From Candidatus Eremiobacteria bacterium (lineage in GTDB: Bacteria; Vulcanimicrobiota; Vulcanimicrobiia; Vulcanimicrobiales; Vulcanimicrobiaceae): a stretch of 64,000 nt of DNA. The stretch covers positions 384,001 to 448,000 of the forward strand of contig CAVWUU010000001.1 in assembly GCA_963758295.1 (NCBI GenBank), given 5' to 3'. Positions 3,735 to 19,005 of this stretch are shown here, piece after piece. The notes below the pieces were generated by a model. It was given only the letters and a program-made list of their open reading frames with translations, was not told where the DNA came from and made no database searches. Within the stretch, counting starts at the first letter, position 1. Every line of letters starts with the position of its first letter. The translations under genes were made by a program, and so were the position numbers.

Positions 3735-5456
3735 ATGCTCCGCTACCTTCTAGTACACGTGCTTTGCGCAATAGTTTGCGCTTTTGCCCCGCTGCCGGCG
3801 GCGGCGCAACTTCTGCCCAGCCTTCCGAAAGCGTCGCCGGTCCCTCCCGTTCCCGGCATCAGGCAGGAGGGGCTTTTTCTTACCGGACCGGTGACTGTAG
3901 ACGGGACCCCGGTCTTTCGCATCGCCTCTCCGGTGGCGCCGGCCGGCGGCGAACTGCCGATCAACGTGCGTTTGCTCTACGTGCAAAACGCCATTTCGCA
4001 ACTTTTGGCCGTAACGGATGGCGGCACGGTCTTCGATCCGGACAGCTTCAAGGTGCTGGTCGATCGCGTCGGCCAGCAAGAGACGCTTGTTGCGACAGAC
4101 GGCAAACATAACGGTGAAGCGGGCGAAGTGCCGATCCTTACCGTGACGTCGGCCGACACTCAGTATGCGAACGTCCCGGCCTCGATCTTGGCGGAGCAGT
4201 GGCGCAATCAGCTCCAAAGCGCGCTTAAAGCGGCGCTCAACAAACGGCAGCCGCAAGAGATTCGCCACAATTTAACTGCGCTATTGCGCACGGTCGTCGC
4301 TTTGCTTGTCCTTACGGTGTTGGGCTTTGCCGCGTTGGCGTTGCTGCGCCGTCGTGAAGCGGTGCTGAAACAGCGCGTGGCCGAGCGCCACCGGAAGATC
4401 GGGCAAGCTCAGGCCGACGCGTCGAGCGAGGGCCCTACGAATGATCGTCATCGGCGAAGGTTTTTAGCATTGGCGATGCGTGCGGCAGGGCCGGAACAGC
4501 GGCTACAACGCGTGCATGCTTATTCCGGGTTCATCTTAGCGGTGCTCGTTCTGTTGTGGCTCGGAACGGTAACGTGGGCGCTGTTGCTTTTCCCGCAGAC
4601 GACACCGTACGGTGAACTCGTAAAGCGAAGTGCCCTGAACGTGCTCTTCATCTGGATCGCTGCCGTTTTACTCACGAAGATCGGCGATCTAATCATCGTA
4701 CCGTTCTCGGAAGCTTACGCGAGGCGCGGGACAAACACCGAAGACCGAGCCCGCCATCTTGTCCGTGCACCGACGATATCGCGTTCGCTCATCGGCTTCA
4801 AAAGCTTCATCATCGCCTTCGTCGCTGCGCTGGCGACGCTCTCCGCGCTAAATATCCCGGTTGCGTCGGTCGTTACAATCGGCGGTGTGGCGGCGCTCGC
4901 CATCGGCTTCGCAGCGCAGAGTTTGGTACGCGATTTTCTGAACGGAATGCTCGTGATCTTCGAGGACCAGTACGTCGTCGGCGACTATATCATGGTCGGT
5001 GACTACAACGGCATCGTCGAGAACTTGAGCTTGCGGGTCGTTCAGATCCGGGATGTCCGCGGCCACCTCATCACGATTCCGCACAGTGCCGTGACGCAAG
5101 TTGTCAACGCTTCGCGGAACTGGTCGCGAATCGACTTCCGCATTCCGGTCGATCCGGCGGCCGACGTAAAAAAAGCTTACGAAACCCTGCGTGAAACGAT
5201 CGAAACCGTCGCCCTGGAACCGGAATGGCGCGATGCTTTCTTGAAGCCGATCGAATGGATGGGCATGGAAAATCCGTCGAAGAACGGTCTCGTGCTGCGC
5301 GTTTCGGTGCGTACGGCGCCGCTTCGGCAATTCGAATTGAATCGCGTGTTGAACGAACGAGTATGCGGTGCATTTCACGAGGCAGGTATCCCGCTCGGAA
5401 CCGATCCGCTCGCAATTCCCGCACCGCCCGTTCAGGGCAGTCCAAGTCCGCTCTAG
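3735..5456 (+). CDS. Mechanosensitive channel MscS family with N-terminal periplasmic extension
   Basis: [37 protein letters not shown]...[15 protein letters not shown]scS signature; signal-like N-terminus; start 3729 or 3735. Confidence 0.9.
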
Positions 5457-5475
5457 CGGCAGGCGGGTAGACGGC

Positions 5476-7215
5476 GTGCGAGTCACGGCCCGGTTCGTCC
5501 TGTTCGCGATTACGGCGATGGCGATCGTCATCTTCTACGGGCCGTTAGGGCATGACGACTACACCGGCCGCTGGGGTGGCGGCACCTACGGCTTTGAGAC
5601 GCGCCGGGGAGTTACGGGCTCCAACGCCGTTGCCGGTGTGCTCGCGGGCTCGCCGGCGCAGCGAAGCGGCGTTCGGATCGACGACACGATCGCTCTACGG
5701 CCGTTCGATCAAAATTCGTTCCGGCTGGCCTATCCGCGCGCAGGCGACCACGGTACCTTCACGTTCGTGCGTCCGGACGGCTCTCGATTCACGGTAGCGA
5801 TGACGGCAGTGCCTGTTCCTCATTTCACCGCGTGGGATCGGCTCACCGGAATCCTCGCGATGTTGCCGCCGACGGTGTTTCTCATCGTCGCTTTCATGCT
5901 GGTTTATCTCCGGCCGAATGTGATGACGTGGTCGTTCTACGCTTTCGGCCTCGGATATTTTTCCACAGCGCCGTCGTACCAGTACTTTGCCACGCAGTTG
6001 CCGCCGGGCGTGTTCCTTCCGCTCACATTCGTGCTCTCGACGTTTTTCGGAAACTTCGCCGTCATGCCGCTGCTGCCGTTCGTGCTGCGCTTTCCCGACG
6101 GAAACGTCACGGGAATCCGGCGGCGCTACAATCGCGCAATCTGGATTGCGATCGTCTGCGCTTTTGCGGCGTACTCGTTCCAGTGGTGGTACGAAAATGT
6201 GACCGGCGAACCGCCGTCGTTCCGCGACGTTCTCGATACGTGGTTGCCGCTGGCGTCGTTTTCCTTTGCATCCTTGATCGTCGTCAAGAAGTATAAGACG
6301 GCCTCGCCCGCGATTAGGCAGCGCTTCGGATTTCTCGTCATTGGGCTCATCGTGTCGTTCCTGGCCTACGCGATCTACTTCGTCCCCGGCGTCCCGGTGA
6401 GTGTCGCGCAGATTGCTGGATACGCGGTCGTCATCATGCCTATTGCCGTTGCCTACGGCGTGCTGCGGCATCGCGTGCTGGACGTAAATTTCGTCTTGAA
6501 TCGCGCGATCGTCTACGGCTTGCTTTCGATCTTCGTGATTGCGGTAGTCTCGCTGCTGGATTGGTTCTTCGCGATGATCGTTTCCAGGCAGCATCTTGCC
6601 CTTGCCGGCGAATTGCTCGCTACGATCGCGATCGGCTTTTTGCTCGACCGAATCAACAAAGGCATCGAACGGATGGTCGAATCGGTTTTCTTTCGTCACC
6701 GGCAGCTGGCTGAAATTCATCTGCGCCGAGTCGCCAAGGCCCTCCCTTATGCAACGGAGGAGGAAGCGGTGACCGACGGTCTCGTGCAAGTTCCGGTCGA
6801 TGCGCTGCATTTAAGTGCCGCGGCGCATTATCGGCGCTCGACGGACGGATCCCGCTTCGAAGGCGTTGGCACCTCACACGATACGCCCATGGCTCCGGCA
6901 GGGTTTAACGCAAACCACTTGCTGGTACGGCTGTTGCAAGCTAACGAGGATCGGGTTTGGCTCGACGAATTGCGTTCGCAATTGGATCGCGACAACGCAG
7001 CGATTTACGTTATCGCCATCCCGGTCGCCGTGCGGCATGAGCTCGTCTCTTTCACCCTTTATGGCGCGCATAAAAACGGCGCGCAGCTCGACCCCGATGA
7101 GCTCGAGCTGCTATGCCTGCTTTCCGATGAAGCCTCGCGCGCCTACGATCATATCGACGCAGTGCGTACGCGCGAACGTTACGACGGCCTTATAACTGCG
7201 CGAGAAACTGCGTGA
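5476..7215 (+). CDS. Membrane sensor-like protein: PDZ-like domain, multiple TM helices, C-terminal GAF-like domain
   Basis: VLAGSPAQRSGVRIDDTI (PDZ-like); about 10 hydrophobic segments; YGVLRHRVLDVNFV linker; IAIPVAVRHELVSFTLYG..H.NG..LDPDE GAF-like end. Confidence 0.6.
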   Translation: MRVTARFVLFAITAMAIVIFYGPLGHDDYTGRWGGGTYGFETRRGVTGSNAVAGVLAGSPAQRSGVRIDDTIALRPFDQNSFRLAYPRAGDHGTFTFVRPDGSRFTVAMTAVPVPHFTAWDRLTGILAMLPPTVFLIVAFMLVYLRPNVMTWSFYAFGLGYFSTAPSYQYFATQLPPGVFLPLTFVLSTFFGNFAVMPLLPFVLRFPDGNVTGIRRRYNRAIWIAIVCAFAAYSFQWWYENVTGEPPSFRDVLDTWLPLASFSFASLIVVKKYKTASPAIRQRFGFLVIGLIVSFLAYAIYFVPGVPVSVAQIAGYAVVIMPIAVAYGVLRHRVLDVNFVLNRAIVYGLLSIFVIAVVSLLDWFFAMIVSRQHLALAGELLATIAIGFLLDRINKGIERMVESVFFRHRQLAEIHLRRVAKALPYATEEEAVTDGLVQVPVDALHLSAAAHYRRSTDGSRFEGVGTSHDTPMAPAGFNANHLLVRLLQANEDRVWLDELRSQLDRDNAAIYVIAIPVAVRHELVSFTLYGAHKNGAQLDPDELELLCLLSDEASRAYDHIDAVRTRERYDGLITARETA

Positions 7216-8108
7216 GCGTTTCGTCGAACTTTTGCGGCTGGTCCAGCATCACGTAGTGTCGCGCCGCGGTAATCGGCAACGACTTGCGCTTTCGGCGCAC
7301 CCGCTACGAGCATCTTGTAGAATGTCAGCGTATCGCTTTCCGAATACGGGCTGGGCGAGGCGTACGGCATGATCTCTTCGAACGGGATGGTCACCTTCGC
7401 GAGCTGCGGACGGAGATCGGTCGTTAGATCGGCCGCGGCCCATGCTCCCACCGCTTTCGGATCGCTCTTTGAGACGAGATCGCCGAGTGACGGGGCAAAT
7501 GCAGCGTCGGTGGTGCCGATCGTCGCCATGTAATTGCGCTCGTATTGGACGAAGCTGGCGTGCTGCATTGAATCGAGTTGTGTGGTGATGCCTTTTGCCA
7601 TGGAGGCGCGCTGATCGGCCGTCGATTGAGCCGCCGCCGGAAAGACCGGAAGCCCGTCTGCCGCTACGATGCCGGCGAGGCGGTCGGGGTGCTGTTCTGC
7701 GAGCAGAATCGCAAGCGTTCCGCCGAGGCTGTGCCCGATCACAACCGGTTTATCGATGTGCCGCTGCTCGAGCAGCGACCAAAAATCACGTGTGAAGCCG
7801 GCCAGCAAATCGCTTTCGTTAGACGCTGCTCGGCCGTCGAATCCCGGTAGCGTGATTGCGTAGATCGTATAGTTCGGCGAAAAGTGCGCGATCTGTTCGT
7901 ACCACGTCCAGGTTCCACTCGCGAGTCCCGGAATGAACACGAGCGTTTTCGGCCCGGAGCCGTAGCGATCGACATGAAGCATCCCGCTGTCGAACGATTC
8001 CGTGGGATGCGGTGCCGGTGCAATGGCCGCCGCGAGGGCCGGCTGCGACGCAAAGGCGACGTTGAAGAACAGCGCCGCGGCGAGCAGCGCGCGAAAGGTG
8101 CGAATCAT
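7190..8108 (-). pseudogene. Secreted alpha/beta hydrolase with a frameshift near 7277 (real or sequencing error)
   Basis: Signal peptide, FIPGLAS, GHSLGG nucleophile. The His-containing C-terminus PITAARHYVMLDQPQKFDETLTQFLAQL* (stop 7190-7192) lies in a different frame from ORF 7179..8108. Confidence 0.8.
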
Positions 8109-8124
8109 GGTTGCTCCTGTAAGT

Positions 8125-8325
8125 TTAGTCTAATGAGCCGGCGTCAAAGACATCCTCGACGCTCTTGGAAAAGAGTTTTGAAATCTTGAATGCGAGCGGC
8201 AAGCTTGGTGCGTACTTGCCGGCTTCGAGCGCAACGACCGTTTGCCGCGCGATGCCAAGTTTCTCGGCGAGTTCGGCTTGTGAAAGATCTTGCTCCACAC
8301 GCAAGAGCTTGATCCGGTTTTTCAT
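8125..8325 (-). CDS. XRE/Cro-family HTH transcriptional regulator
   Basis: MKNRIKLLRVEQDLSQAELAEKLGIARQTVVALEAGKYAPSLPLAFKI; ATGA overlap with upstream gene. Confidence 0.93.
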   Translation of the reverse strand: MKNRIKLLRVEQDLSQAELAEKLGIARQTVVALEAGKYAPSLPLAFKISKLFSKSVEDVFDAGSLD

Positions 8326-8717
8326 CGATAGCGCAGGCGCAGTACGATCGAGGACATGAGCCATGCCGCTGCCATCACCGGCCATACCGCAAACATGCTC
8401 AAGCGCGGAAAGCCGGCTCCCTCCAGAAATCCGTACGTAAACGTGATGAACGCCGTGGCGCCGACGGTTACGGCAAGAGACGTCAATTGTATCTGGCGTT
8501 CGAGTTCGTCGCAGGCCGAGAGATACCGGACGATTGCGGCGACCGTGAAAATCACCGGAATCATCGGCGTCACGGCAAGCACGATAAGAAGCGGACGGTT
8601 TGCCGTGCCGATTCGATCCGCGATGAGATTCACCGCCACGAGCAGCACTATGTAAACGGCCAGCGATCCGAATAGCTCGATGAAATAGCGCCGGTTGACT
8701 TGCTGCTGGGTTTTCAT
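8322..8717 (-). CDS. Small 4-TM membrane protein of the type usually paired with XRE regulators
   Basis: Hydrophobic helices, DELERQIQL motif, coupled to the XRE gene. Confidence 0.8.
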   Translation of the reverse strand: MKTQQQVNRRYFIELFGSLAVYIVLLVAVNLIADRIGTANRPLLIVLAVTPMIPVIFTVAAIVRYLSACDELERQIQLTSLAVTVGATAFITFTYGFLEGAGFPRLSMFAVWPVMAAAWLMSSIVLRLRYR

Positions 8718-8815
8718 CGCGGCGCCGCAAGGACTGGAAACGGCACGAATGCGGCTTCGGGCGTGCCCGTGCTGGGACTGTGCGGCATGACCGTGGGAAC
8801 GTGGAACCAGTGCAT
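8714..8815 (-). CDS. 33-aa small ORF MHWFHVPTVMPHSPSTGTPEAAFVPFPVLAAPR
   Basis: AAGGAGG RBS upstream; its TGA overlaps the next gene's ATG (ATGA); first ORF after a sigma70-like promoter. Confidence 0.55.
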   Translation of the reverse strand: MHWFHVPTVMPHSPSTGTPEAAFVPFPVLAAPR

Positions 8816-8837
8816 TCCCTACCCTCCTTTACCGTGA

Positions 8838-8878
8838 AATGTACGGCATAAGTGACACAATGTCAATCATAAGCGACA
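8838..8878 (-). promoter_or_regulatory. sigma70-like promoter overlapped by tandem operator repeats
   Basis: TTGACA (8866-8861)-N17-TACATT (8843-8838); repeats TGTACGGCATAAGTGACA (8840-8857) and TGTCAATCATAAGCGACA (8861-8878). Confidence 0.75.
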
Positions 8879-8918
8879 TTTTGTCTTCTTGGTGCGACTC
8901 CTGGCATTAAATCATGTC

Positions 8919-8935
8919 GTGAAAGTCATTTTCAC
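8919..8935 (+). promoter_or_regulatory. Fur/PerR-like box upstream of peroxiredoxin
   Basis: GTGAAA-GTCAT-TTTCAC inverted repeat; TGAAAGT-C-ATTTTCA resembles the 7-1-7 Fur-family box; TAGAGT -10 at 8952-8957. Confidence 0.55.
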
Positions 8936-9005
8936 TTTTGTGCGGATCGGGTAGAGTGAGCTTCAGAACATCACTCGCTTTCAGCAAAAGGTGGAACTAC
9001 TCATA

Positions 9006-9560
9006 ATGTTGGCGCAAGTCGGCAAACAGGCACCCGATTTCAAACTTCCGAGCACCAAAGGCGCGACCGGAGCGAAGGACCTCGGCAAAGAGATCAAGCT
9101 CTCCGACTATCGCGGCAAATGGCTCGTGTTCTTCTTTTATCCACTGGACTTTACGTTTGTGTGTCCGACCGAAATCACGGCACTTTCGGACCGTGCAGAC
9201 GAGTTCAAAGAGTTTGATACCGAGATCCTCGGCGCGTCGACTGATTCGGTGCACAGCCACTGGGCATGGATCAACACGCCGCGTGAGAAGAACGGCATCG
9301 CGGGTCTGAACTACCCGCTAGTCGCCGACTACACGAAGGAAACGGCGCGTGCCTACGGCGTTCTCGACGAAGCGTCGGGCGTCGCGCAACGCGGGCTCTT
9401 CATTATTGATCCGGAAGGCGTGCTCAAATACGCGGTGGTGACCGACGACAACGTCGGACGTAGCGTAGAAGAAACGCTTCGCGTTCTGCAGGCTCTTCAG
9501 ACCGGTGGTCTTTGCCCGGCTGAATGGAAACCCGGCAAAGCGCTGCTCCAGAAGGCATAA
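9006..9560 (+). CDS. ahpC: 2-Cys peroxiredoxin (AhpC/TSA)
   Basis: FFYPLDFTFVCPTEI, RGLFIIDPEG, GRSVEETLRVLQALQ, LCPAEW. Confidence 0.95.
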   Translation: MLAQVGKQAPDFKLPSTKGATGAKDLGKEIKLSDYRGKWLVFFFYPLDFTFVCPTEITALSDRADEFKEFDTEILGASTDSVHSHWAWINTPREKNGIAGLNYPLVADYTKETARAYGVLDEASGVAQRGLFIIDPEGVLKYAVVTDDNVGRSVEETLRVLQALQTGGLCPAEWKPGKALLQKA

Positions 9561-10037
9561 ATGGCACTACGCATGCGCAGCCCTCTTCCTTCGCTGGAGG
9601 GGGCTGCCGCGTGGCTCAACGGTGAAGTAAAGTCCGAAGAGCTGCGCGGACTTCCCGTCGTTGTCTCCTTTTGGTCGAAGAGCTGTTACATCTGCCATGA
9701 CACCGCCGAGCAATTCGCGCAGTGGCGCGATAAATACGCAAAGCACGGTGTCGCCTTTCTTTCGGTGCATCAGCCGCGTTCCGAGGACGAACTCGACGTC
9801 GAAGCAGTGAAAAAAGATGCCGTCGAAGAGATGAAGCTTACTCAGCCCACGGCGATCGACAACGATCACGCGCTTGTGGAGCGCTTCCAAAACCAATTCG
9901 TGCCGGCGTTTTACGTCTTCAACCGAAAGCACGAATTGCGTCACTTTCAAGCGGGCGGCAAAGGCTTCGAGCGTATCGAAGCGGCGATCGACCGCGTATT
10001 GAACGAGACGCCGGAGGAAGAAGAACTGAACGCTTAG
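9561..10037 (+). CDS. TlpA-like redoxin (thioredoxin fold)
   Basis: VVVSFWSKSCYIC CxxC motif, cis-Pro region FVPAFY; abuts ahpC. Confidence 0.85.
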   Translation: MALRMRSPLPSLEGAAAWLNGEVKSEELRGLPVVVSFWSKSCYICHDTAEQFAQWRDKYAKHGVAFLSVHQPRSEDELDVEAVKKDAVEEMKLTQPTAIDNDHALVERFQNQFVPAFYVFNRKHELRHFQAGGKGFERIEAAIDRVLNETPEEEELNA

Positions 10038-10075
10038 CATGCGTTCTTAAATTTCGGTGAAAAGTATTCGCTAAA

Positions 10076-10101
10076 CGGCCCACCGCGCAAGCGGTGGGTC
10101 G
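10076..10101 (+). terminator. GC-rich hairpin after the ahpC-redoxin pair
   Basis: CGGCCCACCGC-GCAA-GCGGTGGGTCG; no immediate U tract. Confidence 0.45.
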
Positions 10102-10157
10102 TCGCGTTTTACTGCTCTTAGCACCGGGTAATGGGCCACCGCTGGGAGGATCAATAC

Positions 10158-10439
10158 ATGAATAAAAGATTCGCAAGTTTTGTCGTGCTCGGAGCTCTTG
10201 CGGCCACTGCCTCTATAGCGGCAGTTGACGCAAAGACCGCCGCACCGACATCATCTGCAACGGCCTGTCCAAGCTCGTCACCAATGGCCTCCACATCCAA
10301 CACGATGAGCGAAGACAGTACGAAAATGGAAAACTGCGCCTCGCCCTCACCCGGAGCGATGAGCAGCATGGCTCCCGGAGCAAAGGCAAGCCCCGGAACC
10401 ATGGGCAGCGCAGCGCCGACCTACACAGCTCGTCCCTAA
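10158..10439 (+). CDS. Small secreted Ser/Ala/Pro/Met-rich protein
   Basis: GGGAGG RBS; signal peptide MNKRFASFVVLGALAATASIAAVDA; low-complexity mature part with two Cys. Confidence 0.75.
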   Translation: MNKRFASFVVLGALAATASIAAVDAKTAAPTSSATACPSSSPMASTSNTMSEDSTKMENCASPSPGAMSSMAPGAKASPGTMGSAAPTYTARP

Positions 10440-10496
10440 ACTGTAACTCCGCAACGACCGGAGGTCGATGCACGCGCCGCCGCTAACGACAGGCGC

Positions 10497-12446
10497 GTGC
10501 ACGACGGGTCTTTCCGCCTCGCCGTTTTTTGCGGGCCATCGTTGCCTCAATGCGATCGTCTGGCCGACGACCGCGTAACGTATCTGCCGCCGGCATCGCG
10601 CGGCGACGTTCTTCGTGCCGCTAAAGACTACGACGCCGTCCTGCTTATCGACGGCCTCTTCCATCACGATCTCGCGCCTGCGCCGAAAGAATGTTACGAA
10701 TCGACGCTGCACGCCCGAATGTTCGGCGCATCGAGTATGGGCGCGCTGCGCGCGGCCGAATGCGCGCCATACGGTTTTGTGGCGCTTGGCGCTATTGCTG
10801 GTTGGTACGTTCGTGAATCGATCGATGGTGACGATGAAGTCGCGGTGTTAACGCATCCGCAGTCCGGCCGCGCGATCACCGTTCCCGTGGTGAACGTGCG
10901 GCACGTGGCGCGGCTAGCTCGGCGTCGCGGACTGCTTTCGCGTGCGGGCGAGGCGCAGTTCATCGCTAGCGCACGCGAGATTTACTACATGGACCGGAGT
11001 TGGGACGGCGTCATTGCATGCGCGCCTCCGTCGATTGCCAAGCAGTTACACGAACTCATTATGGAGTCAGGAGATCTAAAGCGCCTCGATGCGCGCTTTG
11101 CACTTCGGACGGTGATAAGAACGCTTCAGCGCACAAAAGACGCACGGATTCCATTCGTTACGAAGCGCCCTGCATGCGAATCGGCGCGCGAGTCCGGCGA
11201 AGTGCGACTGCCCTCGACTTCTCCGAAAGATCCCTCGACGTACGATCGCGCGACCAGCTATGCCAGCACGCTCGATCTTGCTCCGGAATTGCGGCGTCGT
11301 TTTGGAATCACTCGCATAGCGGATATAACGAACCTCGACCGGGTCGGCATCCCGGTCTATTCAACGCTCGTTCCGCGTTCGCCCGACATGCTCGGCGTCT
11401 ACAACGGGAAAGGGCTAACGCGCGACGCGTCCATCGCGAGCGCGATCATGGAGGCCGCAGAACGGCAGATCGCCGCCAACGTGCGCCTTCCGGCTTTCGA
11501 GGAAACGGTTGAAGCGGTTTCGCAGCACATCGATCTTCCCGAACTCGGAATGATTGACGTAGCGCCGTCAATGCCGGTACAGTGCGTTCGCGGGACGGAA
11601 TTGCTCTCGGGCGATTCGGTTGCGATTCCGCTTGCACTCGTCCAATGTCCGTGGTTCGGAGAGAAGCTCTTCGATGTCACCAGCACGAACGGGCTCGCGT
11701 CAGGCAACAATATAGCGGAAGCTGTTTATCATGCCTTGTGCGAATTGGTCGAGCGCCACGCCTGGGCGATGTATCACGTACGTTCGTCACTTGTTCCGCG
11801 GCTGTTCGGCGGAACGAACGCGATGGATCGCAGCGTCGCTCCGCAGCTAAAGCTGCCGACGGGCGACCGAGTCGTCGACGCGCTGATCGAAAAAATCGAA
11901 TCCGCCCGACTCGTGTTGCGAGCATTCTTGCTCGAAGAGGCGGAGCTGCCCTATACGGTATTCGTCTCGATTTTTGAGCCGGATCTCGAACCGCCGATGG
12001 TGCACATGGGCATGGGCTGTTCGCTTTCCCCCGCGCATGCGCTGGTACGGGCGCTGACCGAGGCCGTGCAGAGCCGTGCGATCGACATTCAGGGGGCGCG
12101 CGAAGACATGTTGCGTCCCGACGATCCACCGACAAATATGGGCGAACATAATCGACGCCGCAAAGAGTTACCAAAAGATCGTTGGTATTTCGACTTGCCG
12201 GCTCGAGAGATCGAGCTTTCGGGCTTCGTCGATCGTTCGAGCGATGACGTCGCACAAGATGTCCGCACGACGCTCGGCGCGCTCGCCGGTTACGGAATCC
12301 GAAAGATCTTTGCGGTCGAACTAGCGCCGGCGGATTTGTCCGTCAGCGTCGTGCGAGCGATCGTCCCGGGGTTGGAATCGTTTATGTACAGCGGGCGGCT
12401 CGGATCGCGAACTCGGGCGCTGCTCAACCCATTCGCGGTCGCCTGA
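10497..12446 (+). CDS. TfuA-YcaO fusion protein (putative thioamide synthetase)
   Basis: TfuA: VFCGPSL, PPASRGDV, LIDGLF, GASSMGALRAAE, DDEVAV, DLKRLDA. YcaO: GITRIADITNLDRVGIPV, NGKG, MEAAER, STNGLASG, ELVERHA, ALTEAVQSR, IQGARED, VRAIVPGLE. Confidence 0.92.
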   Translation: MHDGSFRLAVFCGPSLPQCDRLADDRVTYLPPASRGDVLRAAKDYDAVLLIDGLFHHDLAPAPKECYESTLHARMFGASSMGALRAAECAPYGFVALGAIAGWYVRESIDGDDEVAVLTHPQSGRAITVPVVNVRHVARLARRRGLLSRAGEAQFIASAREIYYMDRSWDGVIACAPPSIAKQLHELIMESGDLKRLDARFALRTVIRTLQRTKDARIPFVTKRPACESARESGEVRLPSTSPKDPSTYDRATSYASTLDLAPELRRRFGITRIADITNLDRVGIPVYSTLVPRSPDMLGVYNGKGLTRDASIASAIMEAAERQIAANVRLPAFEETVEAVSQHIDLPELGMIDVAPSMPVQCVRGTELLSGDSVAIPLALVQCPWFGEKLFDVTSTNGLASGNNIAEAVYHALCELVERHAWAMYHVRSSLVPRLFGGTNAMDRSVAPQLKLPTGDRVVDALIEKIESARLVLRAFLLEEAELPYTVFVSIFEPDLEPPMVHMGMGCSLSPAHALVRALTEAVQSRAIDIQGAREDMLRPDDPPTNMGEHNRRRKELPKDRWYFDLPAREIELSGFVDRSSDDVAQDVRTTLGALAGYGIRKIFAVELAPADLSVSVVRAIVPGLESFMYSGRLGSRTRALLNPFAVA

Positions 12447-13297
12447 TGGAAAACCAAGACGGGTTACTCGCGCGGGTTTTACGCGGTGATTCGGCCGAGC
12501 GGCACCACTGGGACGAATACTACCGGACATTCCATGCGATGCGGCCGCGCACGACGTCGACGTACGCGGGAAGGCTCCGAACCGAAGATGCTAAGAGTTC
12601 CTATGATGTTTTGGCGGATGCGCTTGCGCCGGTCCGGTCGGTCCTGGATATAGGATGCGGGGACGGGGTGCTGCTCGCCGCAATTCACGAACGCTTTCCG
12701 AGCGCAGTCCTTTCGGGCGTGGACCTCGGCGAAGTGGATCTCGAGTTTGCGAGAGAGCGTCTGCATAACGTGCCGATCGGGACGCTCGCCGTTGAAAATG
12801 CATTAGATCTTCCGTTTGGCGATGAGTCGTTCGATGCGGTCGTCTCTCACATGGTCTTCATGCTGATTCCGGAGTTGGACGACGTGTTGCGCCAGGCGAG
12901 ACGCGTCTTAAAAGAGGACGGGACCGTTGCGTTTGTCGTCGGCGATCCGGCAGCTACCGAAGGTCATATGCGCCGATTTTTTACCTCGGTCAACGAAGCG
13001 ATTCGTACGGAGCATCCAAAGTTCACTCCCCTCAATCCCGCCGATCCGCGAATCTTCGATACGAACGGCATCCGGGAAGCGATGGAGGGCCAGGGCTTCA
13101 CGAACGTCGCGCAAGTTCGGTTCAAATGCGCAGCGCAGCTCGATGCGGATAGCGTTTACGAACAACTCTTGCTACGCTACTACACAGGATCGCTCGGCGA
13201 ACTCGATCTCCAACGAATCAAGGACGTCGCCGGCGCTTTCGCATCGCCGTCGTTCCGCTACACCGAATCACTGCGTCTTGTGACCGCAAATCGTTAA
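12446..13297 (+). CDS. Class I SAM-dependent methyltransferase
   Basis: VLDIGCGDG motif I, GVDL, LPFGDESFDAVVS, RVLKEDG; ATG overlaps the TfuA-YcaO stop by 1 bp. Confidence 0.92.
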   Translation: MENQDGLLARVLRGDSAERHHWDEYYRTFHAMRPRTTSTYAGRLRTEDAKSSYDVLADALAPVRSVLDIGCGDGVLLAAIHERFPSAVLSGVDLGEVDLEFARERLHNVPIGTLAVENALDLPFGDESFDAVVSHMVFMLIPELDDVLRQARRVLKEDGTVAFVVGDPAATEGHMRRFFTSVNEAIRTEHPKFTPLNPADPRIFDTNGIREAMEGQGFTNVAQVRFKCAAQLDADSVYEQLLLRYYTGSLGELDLQRIKDVAGAFASPSFRYTESLRLVTANR

Positions 13298-13362
13298 AGC
13301 GGCCGCCTGTTTGTCCGATAGATTCCTAGAGCCGAACTAACTACTGCTTCAGCGAGGATTTC

Positions 13363-13641
13363 ATGGCGACAGTTCAACAGAAGGCGATTGCCGCCGGGTT
13401 TTTGCATGCATTGCAAGATCCCGCGGTGTTGGAAAAGTGGCAAGATGCCAAAGGCGATAGCATGAAGCTTCGCACGCTGATCAAAGACACGCTCGGGCTC
13501 TCGCAACTCCCCTCAGAGGCCGATCTGGATGCCATGCGCGGCCACGCCGAGGAAGCGCTTCAAGAAGAACACAAGACACTGCTCGAGCATCAAGAGCATG
13601 CGCCACACGTAGTCGGAAACGGATTTACCGTACAGCAGTAG
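13363..13641 (+). CDS. 92-aa protein, candidate RiPP precursor (Nif11-like leader)
   Basis: [26 protein letters not shown] and [11 protein letters not shown] resemble Nif11/NHLP leader motifs; directly follows the modifying enzymes. Confidence 0.65.
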
Positions 13642-16245
13642 ACTGGCTCAGAACCCAGGTCGCGATCTGAGTTCGTTTCGAAACGCCGAGCTTGTTGAAG
13701 ATGTTGGCGACGTGGCCTTCGATGGTACGTTCGCTCAAAACCAACTGCTCGGCGATTTCTTTATTGCTTCTTCCCTCCGAAATCAGATCCGCGATCTGAC
13801 GTTCGCGCGCCGTGAGCGAGCCGCCCGTTTTGCCATCGGCCAGCGTAGTTTGCGTTTGGAACCACGAGACGCCGCGCTCAGCGAGCCCTTTGGCGGCGTC
13901 GCGTTGTTCGGTGCCGCGCCCGCACGCGGCGAGCAACAAAAACCGTGCCAGCGTCATGCCCAAATACTCGCATTGCGTTGCGAGCGCTCCGATCGATCCC
14001 GAGAGCTGGCGGCCCAAGAAATGATTGGCGAGGGCACCCGTAACGCTGCGTTCCGCTGCGGAAAGGGGCTGCATGTCGGCCCAAAAGGCGGAACCGTCTG
14101 CCGCTCGAGCCAGAACGTCTTTTCGCTTCAGCCTTTGAGCTGCAAGTGCGATAGGCAGGCGCCACTGGAAAAGGTATGGGTCTTGCGAACTCGCCGCATA
14201 CGGAAGGGCGGCGTCGAGAAGCCGCGAGCTCGTTTGATCGTCCAGAAGTCCTGAAGCAGCCGACCATACCGCCATGTTATATAACACAGCCGATTTTTCG
14301 CCCGCGGCGAATCGCAGCGCTTCCGCCTCGATCGTCTTCCAATAAGAACCCGGCGATCCGCGCAGCGCATAGAGCGCCGCCGCACTGCCCAGAATACGTC
14401 CCCGCTCGGAGCCCTCCAGCGGCCGGCGCAACGAGTCTTCGATGCTAAGCGATGCCTCATCGAGACGCGCGCTCTGAATTTTTGAATGCAGAACGAACTG
14501 CGTGAGCTCCGGATTGCGCACGTCGTTCAATTGCATCCGGATGAAGCCGTTATCGCGCGTTCCGAACTGCATGTACCGAATGTAGGCGTCGACAACCACG
14601 GCATGATTGCTATTAGTCGAATGGAGGGACTTGGCGATCTCCGTTATGAGAGGTAGACGCTTGCGCGCCGCTTCATAATCGCCCGACCTGCTCTCGACGA
14701 ATGCTTGCGCAATCTCCGCTCGCATTCGGACCGGGGCCGGAAGCTCGATGTCCAGGTTCTCGATGTGTTGCAAAGTTCGCTGTAAGCCTTCAACGTCGTG
14801 TTCGCAAACGTTAAACCAAAGCGCTGCCCCGTGGAGCATCGATAAGTCAAGCGGATCGCTAAATACCGAAGCGTAGTGCCGATAGGTCAGTTTAGCCGAC
14901 TCATACCGGTCGCCAAAGAATTGTGACAAGACGAGTTGCGCCGCAAGTGCACCGAGATTCGGAAGCTTACGATATTGCGCTTCGCTTAGCGCATGAAGCA
15001 AGACGGTTTCCGCCCGGCGATCCATCGTCGAAAAGCTCAGCGCTTTTGCAAAATTTCCGTAGAACTCCAAAAAGGCGTCGTCCGGCGGCTCGCCAAGCTC
15101 CATGTGGCTTTCCGAGGCGGAAATAACCATGCGAAAAAGATTTTTTTCGTTAGCTTGCGATGAAAGCGCAAGATACGTTTCCTGCGCGAGTTTGCGGTCT
15201 CCGGCGGATAGCGCCTGTTCGGCTATTAGTAAGCGGTCTTCGACTCGCAATCGATCCGCTCGGGAAATCGCTTCGATGATCGGCGGTGCAGCGGGATCTT
15301 GATCGGAATCGTTTCCAGCACCGCTTCGCCCACAAGCGCGTGTCTGAAGCGTAGCGTCGCGCCTTCCTGAACGAGATACTGCGCGGCCGATTGCGCGATG
15401 TATTCGCCGAGTTCGGTGCTGTTCGTCCACAGGCGTGCCAACAGATCGTACTCGATCGGCTCGGGAAGGAGGGACACGATTTGAAGAAACGTGCGAAACC
15501 CGGAGCTTAGACCCTGGATACGACGAGCAATTAACGAACGCGTGCTTCTCTCAACGTCGCCCGCGTTGTGCGCATCGTTTTCGGCCGCTGCTTCGGCGAG
15601 CGCCGTGAGATCGAGCGGAACACCGCCCGAGTGCTCGATGATCCGGTCGATGACGGCCGTTTCCGCGTGCGGCAGCGATTGCTCGACGAGTTCTCTTGCG
15701 CGACGCGCATCCAGCGTGCCAAGACCGATCGTTTCGTCTACTGCCAGAGGGACGTCTGAAGCCATCTCGTCGCTTCGGCGCGCGAGAACGAGAAGGAGCG
15801 GCGAACTTGCAAACTGCGGAACGATAGCATCCAGCGCCGACAGCGTTTCTTCATCAGCCCACTGCGCGTCGTCCAATAGCAACGCGACCGGACGGTCAAG
15901 AAGAATGCCTTCGAGCGCTGTTGATAACGCAATTGCCGGATCGTGCCCTGCACCGTCCGCCGCGAAGTAGCGCGTTGAGTCCGGGCCCAAAGCGTTCGCG
16001 ATTTGCGAAAGCATGCGCGAAAGCGAGGCGTACGGAACGGTCGCCTGGATCCGAAAAGCGGCCGTGCCTACCACGAGCGCCCCTTGCTGTTGAAGCCGGC
16101 CGGCAAGCTCTGCCATAACAGCGCTCTTGCCGATGCCGCTCGGTCCCTCAACGAGCAAGACTCGGGGCACCGGCGTGGTAACGGCCGTTTTGAAAAGATC
16201 CAGGGCGGACGCGATTTCCCGTTCGCGGCCGATGAGGGAAGACAT
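13625..16245 (-). pseudogene. LAL-family (AAA ATPase + LuxR HTH) regulator split by a 1-bp deletion near 15281
   Basis: LIGREREI, GPSGIGKS, LLLDDAQWAD, FRHAL in ORF 15226..16245; [38 protein letters not shown] in ORF 13625..15430; joins as PLHRR|IIEAISR (about 873 aa). Confidence 0.85.
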
Positions 16246-16302
16246 GACCTCTCACGGTCCTGGTTGCCCGCCTGATTTTCCTTCTAATTTGACTTCATCA
16301 TA

Positions 16303-16349
16303 ACCAGGGGTTTCCACGGGCGACCCGGGGGTGTTTGCCCTGCTAGGCT
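16303..16349 (+). promoter_or_regulatory. Candidate LAL-binding box plus extended -10
   Basis: ACCAGGGGTTTCCACGGGC (16303-16321), 22 nt, then TAGGCT (16344-16349) preceded by TGC. Confidence 0.5.
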
Positions 16350-16370
16350 TAGCGCGTGGAGGAGCTTTCT

Positions 16371-16730
16371 ATGTATGCACCCGCGCTGACCCTGACCGGT
16401 TTTCCGGATCACCGCCCGAGGAGCACGCGCATGCGATCGTCCGTTCCGTACTGCTTCATCTTGGACGACACGTACCGGATCGTGATGGCCGGCCCGTCGG
16501 GCGGAGAAGACCCGCTTGCTCCCTACTACGCCTCCGACTCAGAACCCGATGTGTTACCCGGTCCCGTCGACCGCGTCGTACGCGCCCTCACGGCGGCCTG
16601 GCGTTCAACGAGAGCCGCTGCAAGCGCATCGGCATCGGTTAACGAGTTGCAGGTAACCGTGGCGCCCCTTCACGGAACCGACGGACGAAAGATCGCGGTT
16701 TTCGTGCAGCGATCCGACGAACAGAAGTAA
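16371..16730 (+). CDS. Hypothetical protein (small alpha/beta, PAS-like pattern)
   Basis: GGAGG RBS; CFILDDTYRIVMA...VTVAPLHGTDGRKIAVFVQ; divergent from the LAL gene. Confidence 0.7.
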   Translation: MYAPALTLTGFPDHRPRSTRMRSSVPYCFILDDTYRIVMAGPSGGEDPLAPYYASDSEPDVLPGPVDRVVRALTAAWRSTRAAASASASVNELQVTVAPLHGTDGRKIAVFVQRSDEQK

Positions 16731-16776
16731 GTAAAAAGGCGCAGGCGCGCGGGACGCGCCTGCCGCTCCAGCGTAC

Positions 16777-18720
16777 TTGCTGGCTGTGCGAATTGAATTA
16801 ACCGCCCGCGGCCTTCTGCTCGGCGGCCTTATTACGCTGGTTTTTACCGCAGCCAACGTTTATCTCGGCCTCAGGGTCGGCCTCACATTTGCATCTTCCA
16901 TCCCAGCCGCTGTCATTTCGATGGCGGTTCTTCGTATGTTCCGCAACTCGACGATTTGGGAAAACAACATCGTTCAGACGGTGGCGTCGGCGGCCGGGAC
17001 GCTCTCCTCGGTAATCTTCGTTCTGCCGGGTCTCGTGATGGTAGGCTGGTGGACGGGCTTTCCGTTCTGGGAATCGTTCGGCATTTGCGCCGTCGGCGGA
17101 ATTCTGGGCGTAATGTACAGCGTGCCGCTGCGTCGTGCGCTCGTAACGTATTCCGATCTGCCGTATCCGGAAGGCGTTGCAGCCGCCGAAGTATTGCGCG
17201 TCGGGGCGGGCGAGGGCGCGACCGAAGCGCAAGCCGAGAATCGCCTTGGGCTCATCGCGCTAGTTGTAAGTTCCGTCGCATCGGCGGCCGTGCAGCTCGG
17301 CGTTGCCTTTCGTTTGTTTGCCGCCGACCTCACGGCATTCTTCCGTGCGGGTAAATCCTCGACGGGTATCGATTTTTCGCTTTCGCTCGCGCTGATCGGC
17401 GCCGGCCACCTAATCGGGCTCACCGTTGGTATGGCAATATTCGCCGGGCTGATCATTGCGTGGGGAATCGCGATTCCGATTCTCACGGCGATGCATCCGA
17501 TGCCTGGGCCGGCAGCCGACGTGGCAAATTACGTTTGGTCGCATTACGTGCGATTCATCGGCGCGGGGGCGATCGGTATCTCGGCCATTTGGACGCTCGG
17601 CAAACTCGCTGCGCCGGTGTGGAACGGCGTCGCTTCCGCTATCGCGGCGTCCCGTCATCGCGCCCAAGTCGGCGCCGAAAGCCTGCCCATCACCGAGCAA
17701 GATTTGCCGATCGGGATCGTGGCGATGATTTCGACCGTCTGCCTGCTGCCGATCGTCATCCTGTTGTGGGCCTTTCTCTCGGGGACGGCGATCGTGGGCA
17801 TGGGGCCGGTGCTAATTATCGGTGCCGTGTTGTACATCGTGCTCGCCGGTTTTCTGGTTGCTGCCGCAACCGGCTATATGGCCGGACTTATCGGCTCTTC
17901 AAACAGTCCGGTTTCCGGCATGGCGATTCTCTCGGTAATCGGCGCGTCGTTGCTGTTGCTCGTGCTTTCGCATGGTGCGGATAAATCGTCGGCGCCCGCG
18001 CTCGTCGCCTATGCATTGTTTGTTACGGCGCTGTTGATCAACGTCGCAACCATTTCGAACGATAACTTGCAAGATTTGAAGACCGGCCAGCTCGTTGGAG
18101 CAACGCCATGGCGGCAGCAAGTCGCGCTGATGGTCGGCGTGATTTTTGGCGCAATCGTGATTCCGCCGGTCCTTGTTGTGCTCAACAAGGCCTACGGCTT
18201 CGGCGGTCCGCACGGGTTGCCGGCTCCGCAAGCGACGTTGATCTCCACGCTCGCCAAGGGCGTGATTCAGGGGCAGATCGACTGGAGTTTGATCGGGATC
18301 GGCGTGCTCGTCGGTATCGGGATCATCATCATCGATGAAGCGGGCCGCATCAGTGGACGTTTCCGTCTGCCGCCGCTGGCTGTCGGCCTGGGGATTTACT
18401 TGCCGACCAGCGCGACGGCCCCCGTGGTAGTCGGTGCGGTCTTCGGCAAGATTTACAACACTTGGGTCGCGACCAAACCGAACGGCGACGCAGCGCGCCG
18501 TCTCGGCGTGCTGGTCGCGTCGGGATTGATCGTCGGAGAAAGTGTTTTCGGCGTCTTCTTGGCCGGGCTTATCTACGTCTCGAATAAGCCGTCGCCGCTT
18601 GCGATCTTCGGCGATTCTTTTGCGGGCTGGGCGTTAGGCCTTGGAGCGATCGCGTTCGTCGCGATACCGTTTGCACTTTATCGCTGGATCGGCCGAAGCG
18701 CGCAAACGCTCGAAGCCTAA
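16777..18720 (+). CDS. OPT-family oligopeptide transporter
   Basis: FTAANVYLGLRVGLTFASSIPAAVISMA, ENNIVQT, LPYPEG, GSSNSPVSG, NDNLQDLKTG, APQATL. Confidence 0.95.
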   Translation: MLAVRIELTARGLLLGGLITLVFTAANVYLGLRVGLTFASSIPAAVISMAVLRMFRNSTIWENNIVQTVASAAGTLSSVIFVLPGLVMVGWWTGFPFWESFGICAVGGILGVMYSVPLRRALVTYSDLPYPEGVAAAEVLRVGAGEGATEAQAENRLGLIALVVSSVASAAVQLGVAFRLFAADLTAFFRAGKSSTGIDFSLSLALIGAGHLIGLTVGMAIFAGLIIAWGIAIPILTAMHPMPGPAADVANYVWSHYVRFIGAGAIGISAIWTLGKLAAPVWNGVASAIAASRHRAQVGAESLPITEQDLPIGIVAMISTVCLLPIVILLWAFLSGTAIVGMGPVLIIGAVLYIVLAGFLVAAATGYMAGLIGSSNSPVSGMAILSVIGASLLLLVLSHGADKSSAPALVAYALFVTALLINVATISNDNLQDLKTGQLVGATPWRQQVALMVGVIFGAIVIPPVLVVLNKAYGFGGPHGLPAPQATLISTLAKGVIQGQIDWSLIGIGVLVGIGIIIIDEAGRISGRFRLPPLAVGLGIYLPTSATAPVVVGAVFGKIYNTWVATKPNGDAARRLGVLVASGLIVGESVFGVFLAGLIYVSNKPSPLAIFGDSFAGWALGLGAIAFVAIPFALYRWIGRSAQTLEA

Positions 18721-18723
18721 ACG

Positions 18724-18930
18724 CTACGCCGTCTGAACGGGGCTGCGCTCGTCGCGCAGTCCCTGTTTCAACTGCGCCGCCAATTCCGGCGAATCGGCAT
18801 GGCCATGTGCGCCAACTGCGTGTTGTTTAGCCGCGGTCAAGACTTCATCTTCGGTTCCCGAGATATACAGCGAGCAATTCTTCTCGCTCGGGTAGTCACG
18901 GCAATCGATGTACTTGCGGTTCGTATCCAT
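18724..18930 (-). CDS. DUF1059-family small metal-binding protein
   Basis: RKYIDCRDYPSEKNCSLYISGTEDEVL.AA.QHAV..HGH. Confidence 0.8.
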   Translation of the reverse strand: MDTNRKYIDCRDYPSEKNCSLYISGTEDEVLTAAKQHAVGAHGHADSPELAAQLKQGLRDERSPVQTA

Positions 18931-19005
18931 CTGTGCTCTCACAAACTCGTCGCTCACACCGCGTAATTCACGATACGCCGCGCCGGCGGCCCCGTCAATG
19001 CGACC

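Follow-up and report, generated by a model that had tools for sequence, protein, structure and literature searches.

Gene content of the locus

We analysed a 64,000-nucleotide stretch from the genome of an uncultured soil bacterium, Candidatus Eremiobacteria (GenBank assembly GCA_963758295.1, contig CAVWUU010000001.1, positions 384,001 to 448,000 of the forward strand; hereafter the window, numbered from its first letter). Positions 10497-13641 hold three genes on the same (+) strand, which encode a TfuA-YcaO fusion protein, a methyltransferase and a 92-aa protein (Table 1). A preliminary description had read these genes as a compact and possibly undescribed system that would place thioamide and methyl groups on the 92-aa protein, in the manner of the RiPPs, peptides that are made on the ribosome and modified after translation. 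Comparison with related loci supports this interpretation as a whole: the genes for the fusion and the small protein are linked across genera of the phylum, the small protein belongs to a family built like RiPP precursors, and the fusion is most similar to thioamide-forming enzymes, from which its chemistry is predicted.

The list of open reading frames (ORFs) bears out the co-orientation of the three genes and the 1-bp overlap reported for the first two, since base 12446 is common to the fusion stop and the methyltransferase start (GCC TGA/ATG GAA). The ATG of the 92-aa ORF is preceded, 6 nt upstream, by GAGGA. All three genes of the compact locus originally proposed are thus present, but the conserved cassette is larger, adding a STAND-LuxR regulator, whose 3' end shares 17 nt with the precursor gene, and a PAS-like protein.

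Table 1. Features of the cassette, with positions in the window.
Feature	Position	Strand	Details
TfuA-YcaO fusion gene	10497..12446	+	649 aa, GTG start; PF07812 and PF02624
TfuA domain	~10650-11000	+	within fusion gene
YcaO domain	~11403-12377	+	within fusion gene
Class I S-adenosylmethionine-dependent methyltransferase gene	12446..13297	+	283 aa; Methyltransf_11
Precursor peptide gene	13363..13641	+	92 aa; family alignments, AlphaFold 2 model, profile search
Precursor leader, residues 1-79	13363-13599	+	
Proposed precursor core, residues A80-92	13600-13638	+	
STAND (AAA_16)-LuxR (GerE) regulator gene, LAL type (large ATP-binding LuxR-family regulator)	13625..16245	-	convergent; split into 339-aa and 601-aa ORFs
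PAS-like 124-aa protein gene	16356..16730	+	divergent from regulator; conserved among relatives

The fusion protein is closest in sequence to thioamide-forming YcaO and TfuA proteins

Profile searches confirm the fusion. In one polypeptide, Pfam places TfuA (PF07812) at residues 52-168 with E 5.7e-27 and YcaO (PF02624) at residues 303-627, covering model positions 1-325 of 325, with E 2.2e-54. The translation also contains two features reported from it before, the motif IQGARED (residues 531-537) and a C-terminus (...ALLNPFAVA) that lacks the PxPxP of azoline-forming YcaOs. Two acidic motifs, M318-E-A-x-E-R-Q324 and C415-E-L-x-E-R-H421, are invariant across 12 homologues and presumably bind ATP and Mg. 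In the same 12-sequence alignment the TfuA domain has many invariant columns, and it is kept in every cassette, whether fused or separate.

The YcaO had been assigned to the TfuA-associated or methanogen type, and the closest curated families and solved structures agree. The top NCBIfam model for the YcaO part is TIGR03266 (methan_mark_1, McrA-glycine thioamidation; 209.9 bits against a cut-off of 365) and that for the TfuA part is NF033432 (ThioGly_TfuA_rel; 135 bits against 235.2); SagD, a model of the azoline type, reaches 90.9 bits. Best among Protein Data Bank (PDB) entries are the Methanocaldococcus jannaschii YcaO MJ1094 (6pe3, E 6.9e-32) and a TfuA protein (6xp8, E 1.1e-24), with the azoline-forming TruD and LynD far behind (E 2e-5 and 1e-4). 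By these measures, the fusion is closest to the thioamide-forming archaeal (McrA-type) YcaO and TfuA.

No second YcaO or TfuA was found in the source genome (3.03 Mb, 6 contigs, 82% complete). TfuA acts with thiocarboxylated ThiS homologues to deliver sulfide equivalents, according to excerpts of PMC13063428, citing Liu et al. 2021. The preliminary description was right that no ThiS gene lies adjacent, but a ThiS-family gene is encoded on another contig of the genome (G000:C6:90015-90200), and an OPT-family transporter 3.1 kb downstream had gone unmentioned.

The 92-aa protein belongs to a family with a conserved leader and a hypervariable tail

Queries with 10 and 15 members of the family to which the 92-aa protein belongs drew no match from Pfam or NCBIfam, Nif11/NHLP leader models included, even at E values as high as 10. 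Close homologues are also 92 aa long and 57-82% identical, with P81-H-V-V-G85 and Q91 invariant; distant homologues (36-40% identity) keep the N-terminal 78 residues and end in AP-(H/R)-H-V-G, five variable and mostly hydrophobic residues, and (M/T)-Q-Q. The AlphaFold 2 model (15-row alignment) consists of helices at residues 4-17, 20-29, 33-44 and 52-78, with block predicted local distance difference test (pLDDT) scores of 67-82 for residues 1-60, followed from residue 76 to 92 by a disordered tail at pLDDT < 50. Column entropy is 2.1-2.6 bits at residues 1-60 and 3.1 bits at residues 77-92.

A profile search of 1.84 billion representative proteins (50% identity clusters) recovered ~79 relatives at E <= 1e-3, nearly all of 88-125 aa; one match, P0085, is a TPR protein and false. 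A single leader family precedes several tail classes, among them x-V-G...Q, aromatic-N-G and the Cys-containing VGxxCxAED. At least 10 of the 79 representatives carry the tail module P-x-x-V/A-G-x-x-x-x-x-Q in 2-5 tandem copies behind a single leader, with periods of 9-19 aa (a repeat call in P0069 proved spurious). Precursor genes also occur as three tandem paralogues in locus L014, and a five-core precursor gene lies between TfuA and YcaO in L017. Members of this family share a four-helix leader, conserved over ~78 aa, and differ strongly in the C-terminal tail, which is hypervariable. Together with the tandem paralogues and multi-core arrays, a conserved leader joined to a variable core is the signature of RiPP precursors, so that the precursor-like character first ascribed to the 92-aa protein now has family-wide backing, and linkage to the enzyme (below) adds to it.

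Two further arrangements were observed in relatives. A conserved segment of the form ...D-L/V-x-L-R-E-L-L-E/Q-L-S-R/Q-L-T... follows the core or cores in L016 (8060-8416, -), P0013, P0014 and P0019, where it might act as another recognition element or as a follower peptide at the C-terminus. L017 (G118:C26:68000-84000) carries a TfuA, the five-core precursor, a YcaO, a methyltransferase, another YcaO and a further precursor, this one of the Cys class, and looks like a natural two-enzyme, two-substrate arrangement.

Structural searches with the 92-aa model returned no recognisable relative. Foldseek found no PDB match at E <= 0.001 (best E 4.5), the best Z of a wide VIA-align search (5.8) is at the noise level for helical models, and look-alikes in the ESM Atlas are 'hypothetical protein' clusters alone, with a recognition value under the useful range. 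The Nif11 leader MppE (9zn4) ranked 20th (Z 4.4, root mean square deviation (rmsd) 3.5 over 58 residues), tied with many unrelated helical chains; this is noise level for helical models, so the fold speaks neither for nor against an initial impression of a Nif11-like leader, which profiles do not support.

Complex prediction for the fusion (12-row alignment) and the peptide (15-row alignment) gave ipSAE interface scores of 0.51, 0.60 and 0.57 (median 0.57), against a best of 3 of 0.00 for the controls; the runs share at least 49% of contacts, partner pLDDT is at least 77, and no interface was returned. In calibration, 116 of 157 solved complexes attained this mark, as did 2 of 215 mismatches; just 18 of the 157, together with both mismatches, did so with an ipSAE at or under 0.60. 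The prediction thus lends weak support to binding of the peptide by the fusion.

The tails bear on what the enzyme might do. YcaO enzymes share one ATP-dependent mechanism of amide activation and differ in the nucleophile that follows, so the 92-aa peptide might instead receive an amidine or macroamidine, or an azoline on Thr89 or a Cys, with TfuA vestigial or otherwise employed. The Cys-containing cores of some family members (e.g. VGxxCxAED) and a YcaO score under the thioamidation equivalog cut-off would fit such chemistry. However, conserved Cys, Ser and Thr are absent from the core of the window peptide and of most relatives, which excludes azoline formation as the conserved chemistry; the TfuA domain is highly conserved and never lost from a cassette; and the nearest solved relatives of the enzyme form thioamides. 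We regard these other modifications as unlikely.

Enzyme and peptide genes are linked across the phylum

All 11 loci found with the fusion protein carry TfuA-YcaO, methyltransferase and small ORF in order, and in 10 of them a convergent STAND-LuxR gene and then the 124-aa ORF follow, the remaining locus (L009) ending at a contig edge within the small ORF. In L009 the fusion is resolved, giving TfuA, methyltransferase, YcaO and small ORF; the parts therefore remain together even when rearranged. A further 20 loci, from other genera of the phylum, all hold TfuA, YcaO and a homologue of the small ORF, with TfuA and YcaO fused, adjacent, divergent or separated by the regulator. An arrangement that recurs in 11/11 related loci, and with variations in 20/20 more, is far beyond chance. 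The preliminary description had staked its reading on homologous enzymes keeping company with the peptide or the methyltransferase, and they do: a peptide gene comes after the enzyme genes in every one of these 31 comparison loci, and the methyltransferase accompanies a part of them (below).

This linkage holds in an even sample of the phylum Eremiobacterota (401 genomes), where relatives of the fusion occur in 78 genomes and 28 of 116 genera, a count that includes a partial match in the unpublished genome G248. The small-protein profile gave 58 matches in 52 genomes, all of them among the enzyme-positive 78, and none in the 323 enzyme-less genomes. For 56 of these peptide genes, a TfuA/YcaO match is no more than 5 kb away on the same contig. 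The gap measures 22-145 nt if there is no methyltransferase in between and 895-1041 nt in loci of the fused type; the two unlinked matches (G263:C199 and G371:C4) fall on other contigs, both assemblies being fragmented. Most of the 26 genomes that have the enzyme but gave no peptide match carry more divergent YcaOs, and one of them, G055 (locus L018), has a weak family member at E 3e-5 in an ORF-level hmmsearch. In a second set, partly overlapping the first, the peptide is present in 43 of 50 loci, with the seven misses at contig ends or past the fetched flank; the enzyme-based scan that yielded this set, run with two peptide patterns, returned Eremiobacterota-type loci alone among its best 80 matches.

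The related loci come from metagenome-assembled genomes (MAGs) labelled Eremiobacterota, Vulcanimicrobiota, Baltobacteraceae or Ca. Aquilonibacter, and a few SMAG records with other NCBI labels belong to the same phylum by GTDB-based placement. For six SMAG MAGs (L005, L010, L037, L056, L060 and L083), NCBI labels of Acidoferrum, Acidiferrales, Alphaproteobacteria or Dormiibacterota conflict with synteny; that of L083 (= G168) also conflicts with its GTDB-based placement in the window's order.

The limits of the cassette are suggested by a same-genus genome, G213 (unpublished, 88% complete), in which neither enzyme nor peptide was found. There, the thioredoxin-like and OPT genes are 459 nt apart, as against 6.7 kb in the window. 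On the strength of this one genome, we define the cassette as a 6.7-kb insertion/deletion unit between conserved flanks, comprising a 102-aa ORF (membership uncertain), the fusion, methyltransferase, precursor and regulator genes and the PAS-like gene. The nearest neighbours of the three genes in the window are genes for an AhpC/Prx protein, a thioredoxin-like protein, the regulator, the 124-aa protein and the OPT transporter. We considered the OPT, Prx and thioredoxin-like genes as cassette members with a part in metallophore import or export, an idea that we rejected as the main reading because they adjoin each other in the cassette-less G213.

The 102-aa ORF (10131-10439, +), between the thioredoxin-like and TfuA-YcaO genes, encodes a signal-peptide-like N-terminus and a Ser/Pro/Ala/Met-rich tail; it has no Pfam match and is weakly conserved in L001, L004 and L033. 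Directly downstream of the OPT gene lies a gene for a 77-aa DUF1059 protein (18724-18957, -). Promoter and terminator motifs in a scan of 9900-16900 were no more numerous than in shuffled sequence.

The distribution of the cassette also speaks to whether the enzyme might modify a housekeeping protein, with the 92-aa protein serving as a small regulator or adaptor. Excerpts of published work describe YcaOs that modify proteins, namely McrA (PMC5589413) and uL16 (PMC13063428), and the predicted folded helical domain of the 92-aa protein would suit an adaptor. Against this, the cassette is patchy, being confined to the 78 genomes and 28 genera given above and gained or lost as a unit between same-genus genomes; no McrA (MCR_alpha) was found in the source genome, as far as its 82% completeness allows; and the uL16/S12-type model of the E. 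coli-type YcaO (NF040716), whose cut-off is 700 bits, gives 21.3. Nor would one expect an adaptor to show tail hypervariability, tandem paralogues or repeats with several cores. A housekeeping target thus appears highly improbable.

The methyltransferase accompanies one sub-clade of cassettes

The second gene had been called a methyltransferase, and Pfam agrees: Methyltransf_11, Methyltransf_25 and Methyltransf_31 match at E 1e-20 to 6e-18, Methyltransf_11 at E 1.3e-20. Its best PDB match is LahSB (6uak, E 1e-11), with BpumL (4kwc) at E 4.8e-5. We take both to be enzymes that act on RiPPs, LahSB from a RiPP cluster and BpumL of the plantazolicin type. Besides the window, 17 of the 31 comparison loci carry the gene (L001-L011, L015-L017, L025, L030 and L033), and all of these have the x-V/T-G core motif. 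Among genomes with methyltransferase-less cassettes, G120, G033, G065 and G168 have no homologue anywhere in the genome at E <= 1e-10, and G144 has one of 31% identity ~470 kb away.

Because the gene is confined to a sub-clade, we conclude that the methyltransferase is, to judge from its distribution, an accessory tailoring enzyme outside the invariant core. The minimal thioamidation-plus-methylation system originally envisaged accordingly keeps its fusion-peptide linkage but not its methyltransferase as a general component. The residues conserved across methyltransferase-positive cores are limited to Val-Gly and a downstream Gln, Glu or Asp, so the methylation site cannot be deduced from them; possible sites, in no order of preference, are the N-terminus, the backbone, a thioamide sulfur, a side-chain amide and a carboxyl group.

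The cassette includes a regulator and a PAS-like protein

Of the 31 comparison loci, 29 (19 of the further 20) have a STAND-LuxR gene, which converges on the precursor gene where the two adjoin; it was not seen in L023 or in L009, which is cut at a contig end. The 124-aa ORF is conserved in 10 of the first 11 loci, L009 stopping short of it, and in 10 of the further 20. Both are thus part of the conserved cassette. The two halves of the window regulator match AAA_16 (E 3.1e-22) and GerE (E 5.2e-19) in Pfam, which is the LAL architecture. The 124-aa protein has no Pfam match; its AlphaFold 2 model (pLDDT 74) has a five-stranded sheet and a helix. VIA-align rows for this model are dominated by PAS, LOV and phytochrome PAS domains (top Z 8.0, rmsd 2.5-3.0, 79-90 residues), headed by NifL (9qq6_B; Z 8.0, rmsd 3.0, 90 residues) and 3fc7_B (Z 8.0, rmsd 2.5, 79 residues), and the best Foldseek E is 0.0098. 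We call the protein PAS-like, and not a member of the PAS family, because a Z of 8 is the tool's stated borderline.

Other regulator genes were seen in the window and its relatives. A second STAND-LuxR (LAL-type) paralogue lies at window ~37978-40677 (+), and is 27% identical to the N-terminal half and 46% identical across the helix-turn-helix. An extra, shorter regulator paralogue (431-535 aa) lies between the 124-aa and OPT genes of several relatives; its open frame matches the NTPase part together with the C-terminal half's first third.

Regulator homologues are intact single ORFs of 858-905 aa in 10 loci. In DNA alignment with the L004 and L001 orthologues, the window regulator is split by a 1-nt deletion near 15280, where CACCGCCG-ATCATC in the window corresponds to CACCGCCGAATCATC in L004; it is either a pseudogene or the product of an assembly error. 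A soil DNA run with a 0.06 share of words covers only 12912-13238 and 15819-15969, with the frameshift site outside. In L004 it is the TfuA-YcaO gene itself (6001-7942) that is split, into overlapping ORFs of 229 and 449 aa, which suggests that indel errors or decay affect these long-read MAGs too.

This deletion, and the gain and loss of the cassette between close relatives, raise the prospect that the cassette is decaying or silent in this genome, the chemistry being the thioamidation that we favour, the regulator a pseudogene and the product absent. Yet all three biosynthetic ORFs are intact, as is the 124-aa ORF, and a single-base indel may be an assembly error of the kind that could also have split the L004 enzyme gene. 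We consider silence in this genome unlikely, though slightly less so than a change of chemistry.

The regulator also prompts a speculation, to which we give a low probability: that the short hydrophobic thioamidated (here methylated) peptides might be strain-specific cell-cell signals, received by the STAND-LuxR protein with the PAS-like protein as its partner. Such a role would fit the presence of the regulator in nearly all comparison loci, the 5-residue hypervariable core window between conserved flanks, the lack of immunity and export genes in the cassette, and the much faster divergence of the regulator's sensor half than of the enzyme (mean pairwise identity 43% versus 69% for YcaO; 231 pairs, 22 loci). 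Over the same pairs, regulator, methyltransferase and core identities all correlate with YcaO identity (r 0.63-0.89), so co-evolution is inseparable from shared ancestry. If the idea were true, an uncultured phylum would possess a pheromone or pherotype system built on RiPPs, in which multi-core precursors amplify the signal; the strict linkage to a STAND-LuxR/PAS regulatory pair makes it a testable signalling hypothesis.

A proposed thioamidation pathway

That the 92-aa protein is the substrate of the fusion enzyme appears to us likely. On balance, we also think it probable that the cassette is a RiPP biosynthetic system of an undescribed Eremiobacterota family that works by the full mechanism that follows. 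The folded helical leader (~78 residues) would dock on the TfuA-YcaO enzyme, whose YcaO domain would use ATP to phosphorylate one or more backbone amide oxygens in the C-terminal core. The fused TfuA domain would supply sulfide from a ThiS-COSH carrier encoded elsewhere, and elimination of phosphate would leave a thioamide, most likely around the invariant Val84-Gly85, a site chosen by analogy with glycine thioamidation. The co-translated methyltransferase would next methylate this peptide, once or more than once. Host peptidases, presumed to act because the cassette encodes no protease, would then release a short modified peptide. The STAND-LuxR regulator and PAS-like protein may control the cassette.

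Several observations weigh against this pathway. The enzyme's function is transferred from distant relatives, given that the YcaO and TfuA scores both lie below the NCBIfam equivalog cut-offs. No methyltransferase was found in 13 of the 31 comparison cassettes within the DNA examined (L032 is cut on the relevant side), and the cores of one of them, L014, resemble the methyltransferase-associated type; since these cassettes, L014 included, do without the gene, the peptide is assigned as its target from operon position alone. Neither protease, exporter, immunity gene nor RiPP recognition element (RRE) is encoded in the cassette, which leaves maturation and export unexplained, and the complex prediction is no stronger than reported above. 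With its regulator frameshifted, the cassette may be silent or mis-regulated in this genome, or the assembly may be wrong, and no matching RNA run is listed among the sequencing runs searched. Finally, many of the loci and genomes are kin, so the counts of linkage overstate the number of independent observations.

Comparison with known systems

The suggestion that the system is undescribed stands in the freely accessible literature searched: no description was found of the precursor family or of TfuA-YcaO clusters of the phylum. Eremiobacterota are absent from the main text and one supplement of a global TfuA survey (PMC8120280), and an ocean-microbiome paper on Ca. Eudoremicrobiaceae makes no mention of YcaO, TfuA or thioamide.

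If the pathway proposed above is right, the cassette would give a first specialised-metabolite function to the terrestrial Eremiobacterota (Baltobacteraceae), a widespread uncultured lineage of soil and peat. Backbone thioamides are, to our knowledge, a rarity in nature, and the TfuA-YcaO product families characterised to date are few. The leader family is new, one four-helix leader serving several core classes and multi-core arrays, and would lend itself, as a natural scaffold, to studies of substrate recognition by a thioamide-forming YcaO without an RRE. Because it is very small (one fused enzyme gene, one peptide gene and an optional methyltransferase), the cassette is attractive for heterologous reconstitution, and also for installing thioamides in designed peptides.

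Like the thioamitides (thioviridamide-like) and the thioamidated thiopeptides, the cassette is predicted to use TfuA-YcaO thioamidation of a RiPP core, and thioamitide clusters also carry a methyltransferase. The preliminary description had seen no match to thioviridamide or thiopeptide clusters, and their accessory genes are indeed missing from the ORFs scanned at 5368-18957, among which we found no LanD-like decarboxylase, kinase/HopA1 lyase, dehydratase, dehydrogenase, [4+2] cyclase, azole machinery, RRE, protease or ThiS gene. Thioamitide and thiopeptide precursors are unrelated to the 92-aa precursor in length and architecture. Nif11/NHLP precursors are similar in build, with a long helical leader (~75 aa) common to several core classes and then a short variable core; unlike them, the present family matches no leader profile, as noted, and has no double-glycine site or PCAT (peptidase-containing ATP-binding cassette transporter) exporter.

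With the McrA thioglycine system of methanogens the cassette shares its best curated-family and solved-structure matches for both domains, as well as a conserved Gly in the proposed target motif. It differs from that system in scoring under the equivalog cut-offs (209.9 versus 365 and 135 versus 235.2 bits), in residing in a genome where no McrA was found, and in its proposed substrate, a dedicated small peptide with a variable core. Clusters of Burkholderia thailandensis described in PMC8120280 likewise have tfuA-ycaO as one gene, but it is accompanied by two radical-SAM genes, and the precursor predicted there is a different one.

Among characterised systems, the one that comes closest is the thiovarsolin pathway of Streptomyces varsoviensis, for which excerpts of PMC6511847 report that varA, varY and varT alone suffice, that the precursor has 1-5 repeats, and that host peptidases are proposed to release the product. 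As far as those excerpts go, the two systems share a minimal set of TfuA, YcaO and precursor, a range from one core to five imperfect repeats, the lack of a dedicated protease and a Pro motif at the start of the module (APR in thiovarsolin, AP-H/R-x-V-G here). They are set apart, by description, by the fusion of TfuA to YcaO, the long four-helix leader of no recognised family and the different phylum. The cassette also has, unlike the thiovarsolin cluster, a methyltransferase of class I, the STAND-LuxR regulator and the PAS-like protein, whereas it is without four kinds of var gene (heme-oxygenase-like, ATP-grasp, amidinotransferase and MFS), and none of the first three domains was found in the ORFs scanned at 5368-18957. 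We judge the cassette, with its precursor, to be a new RiPP family within known TfuA-YcaO thioamide biosynthesis.

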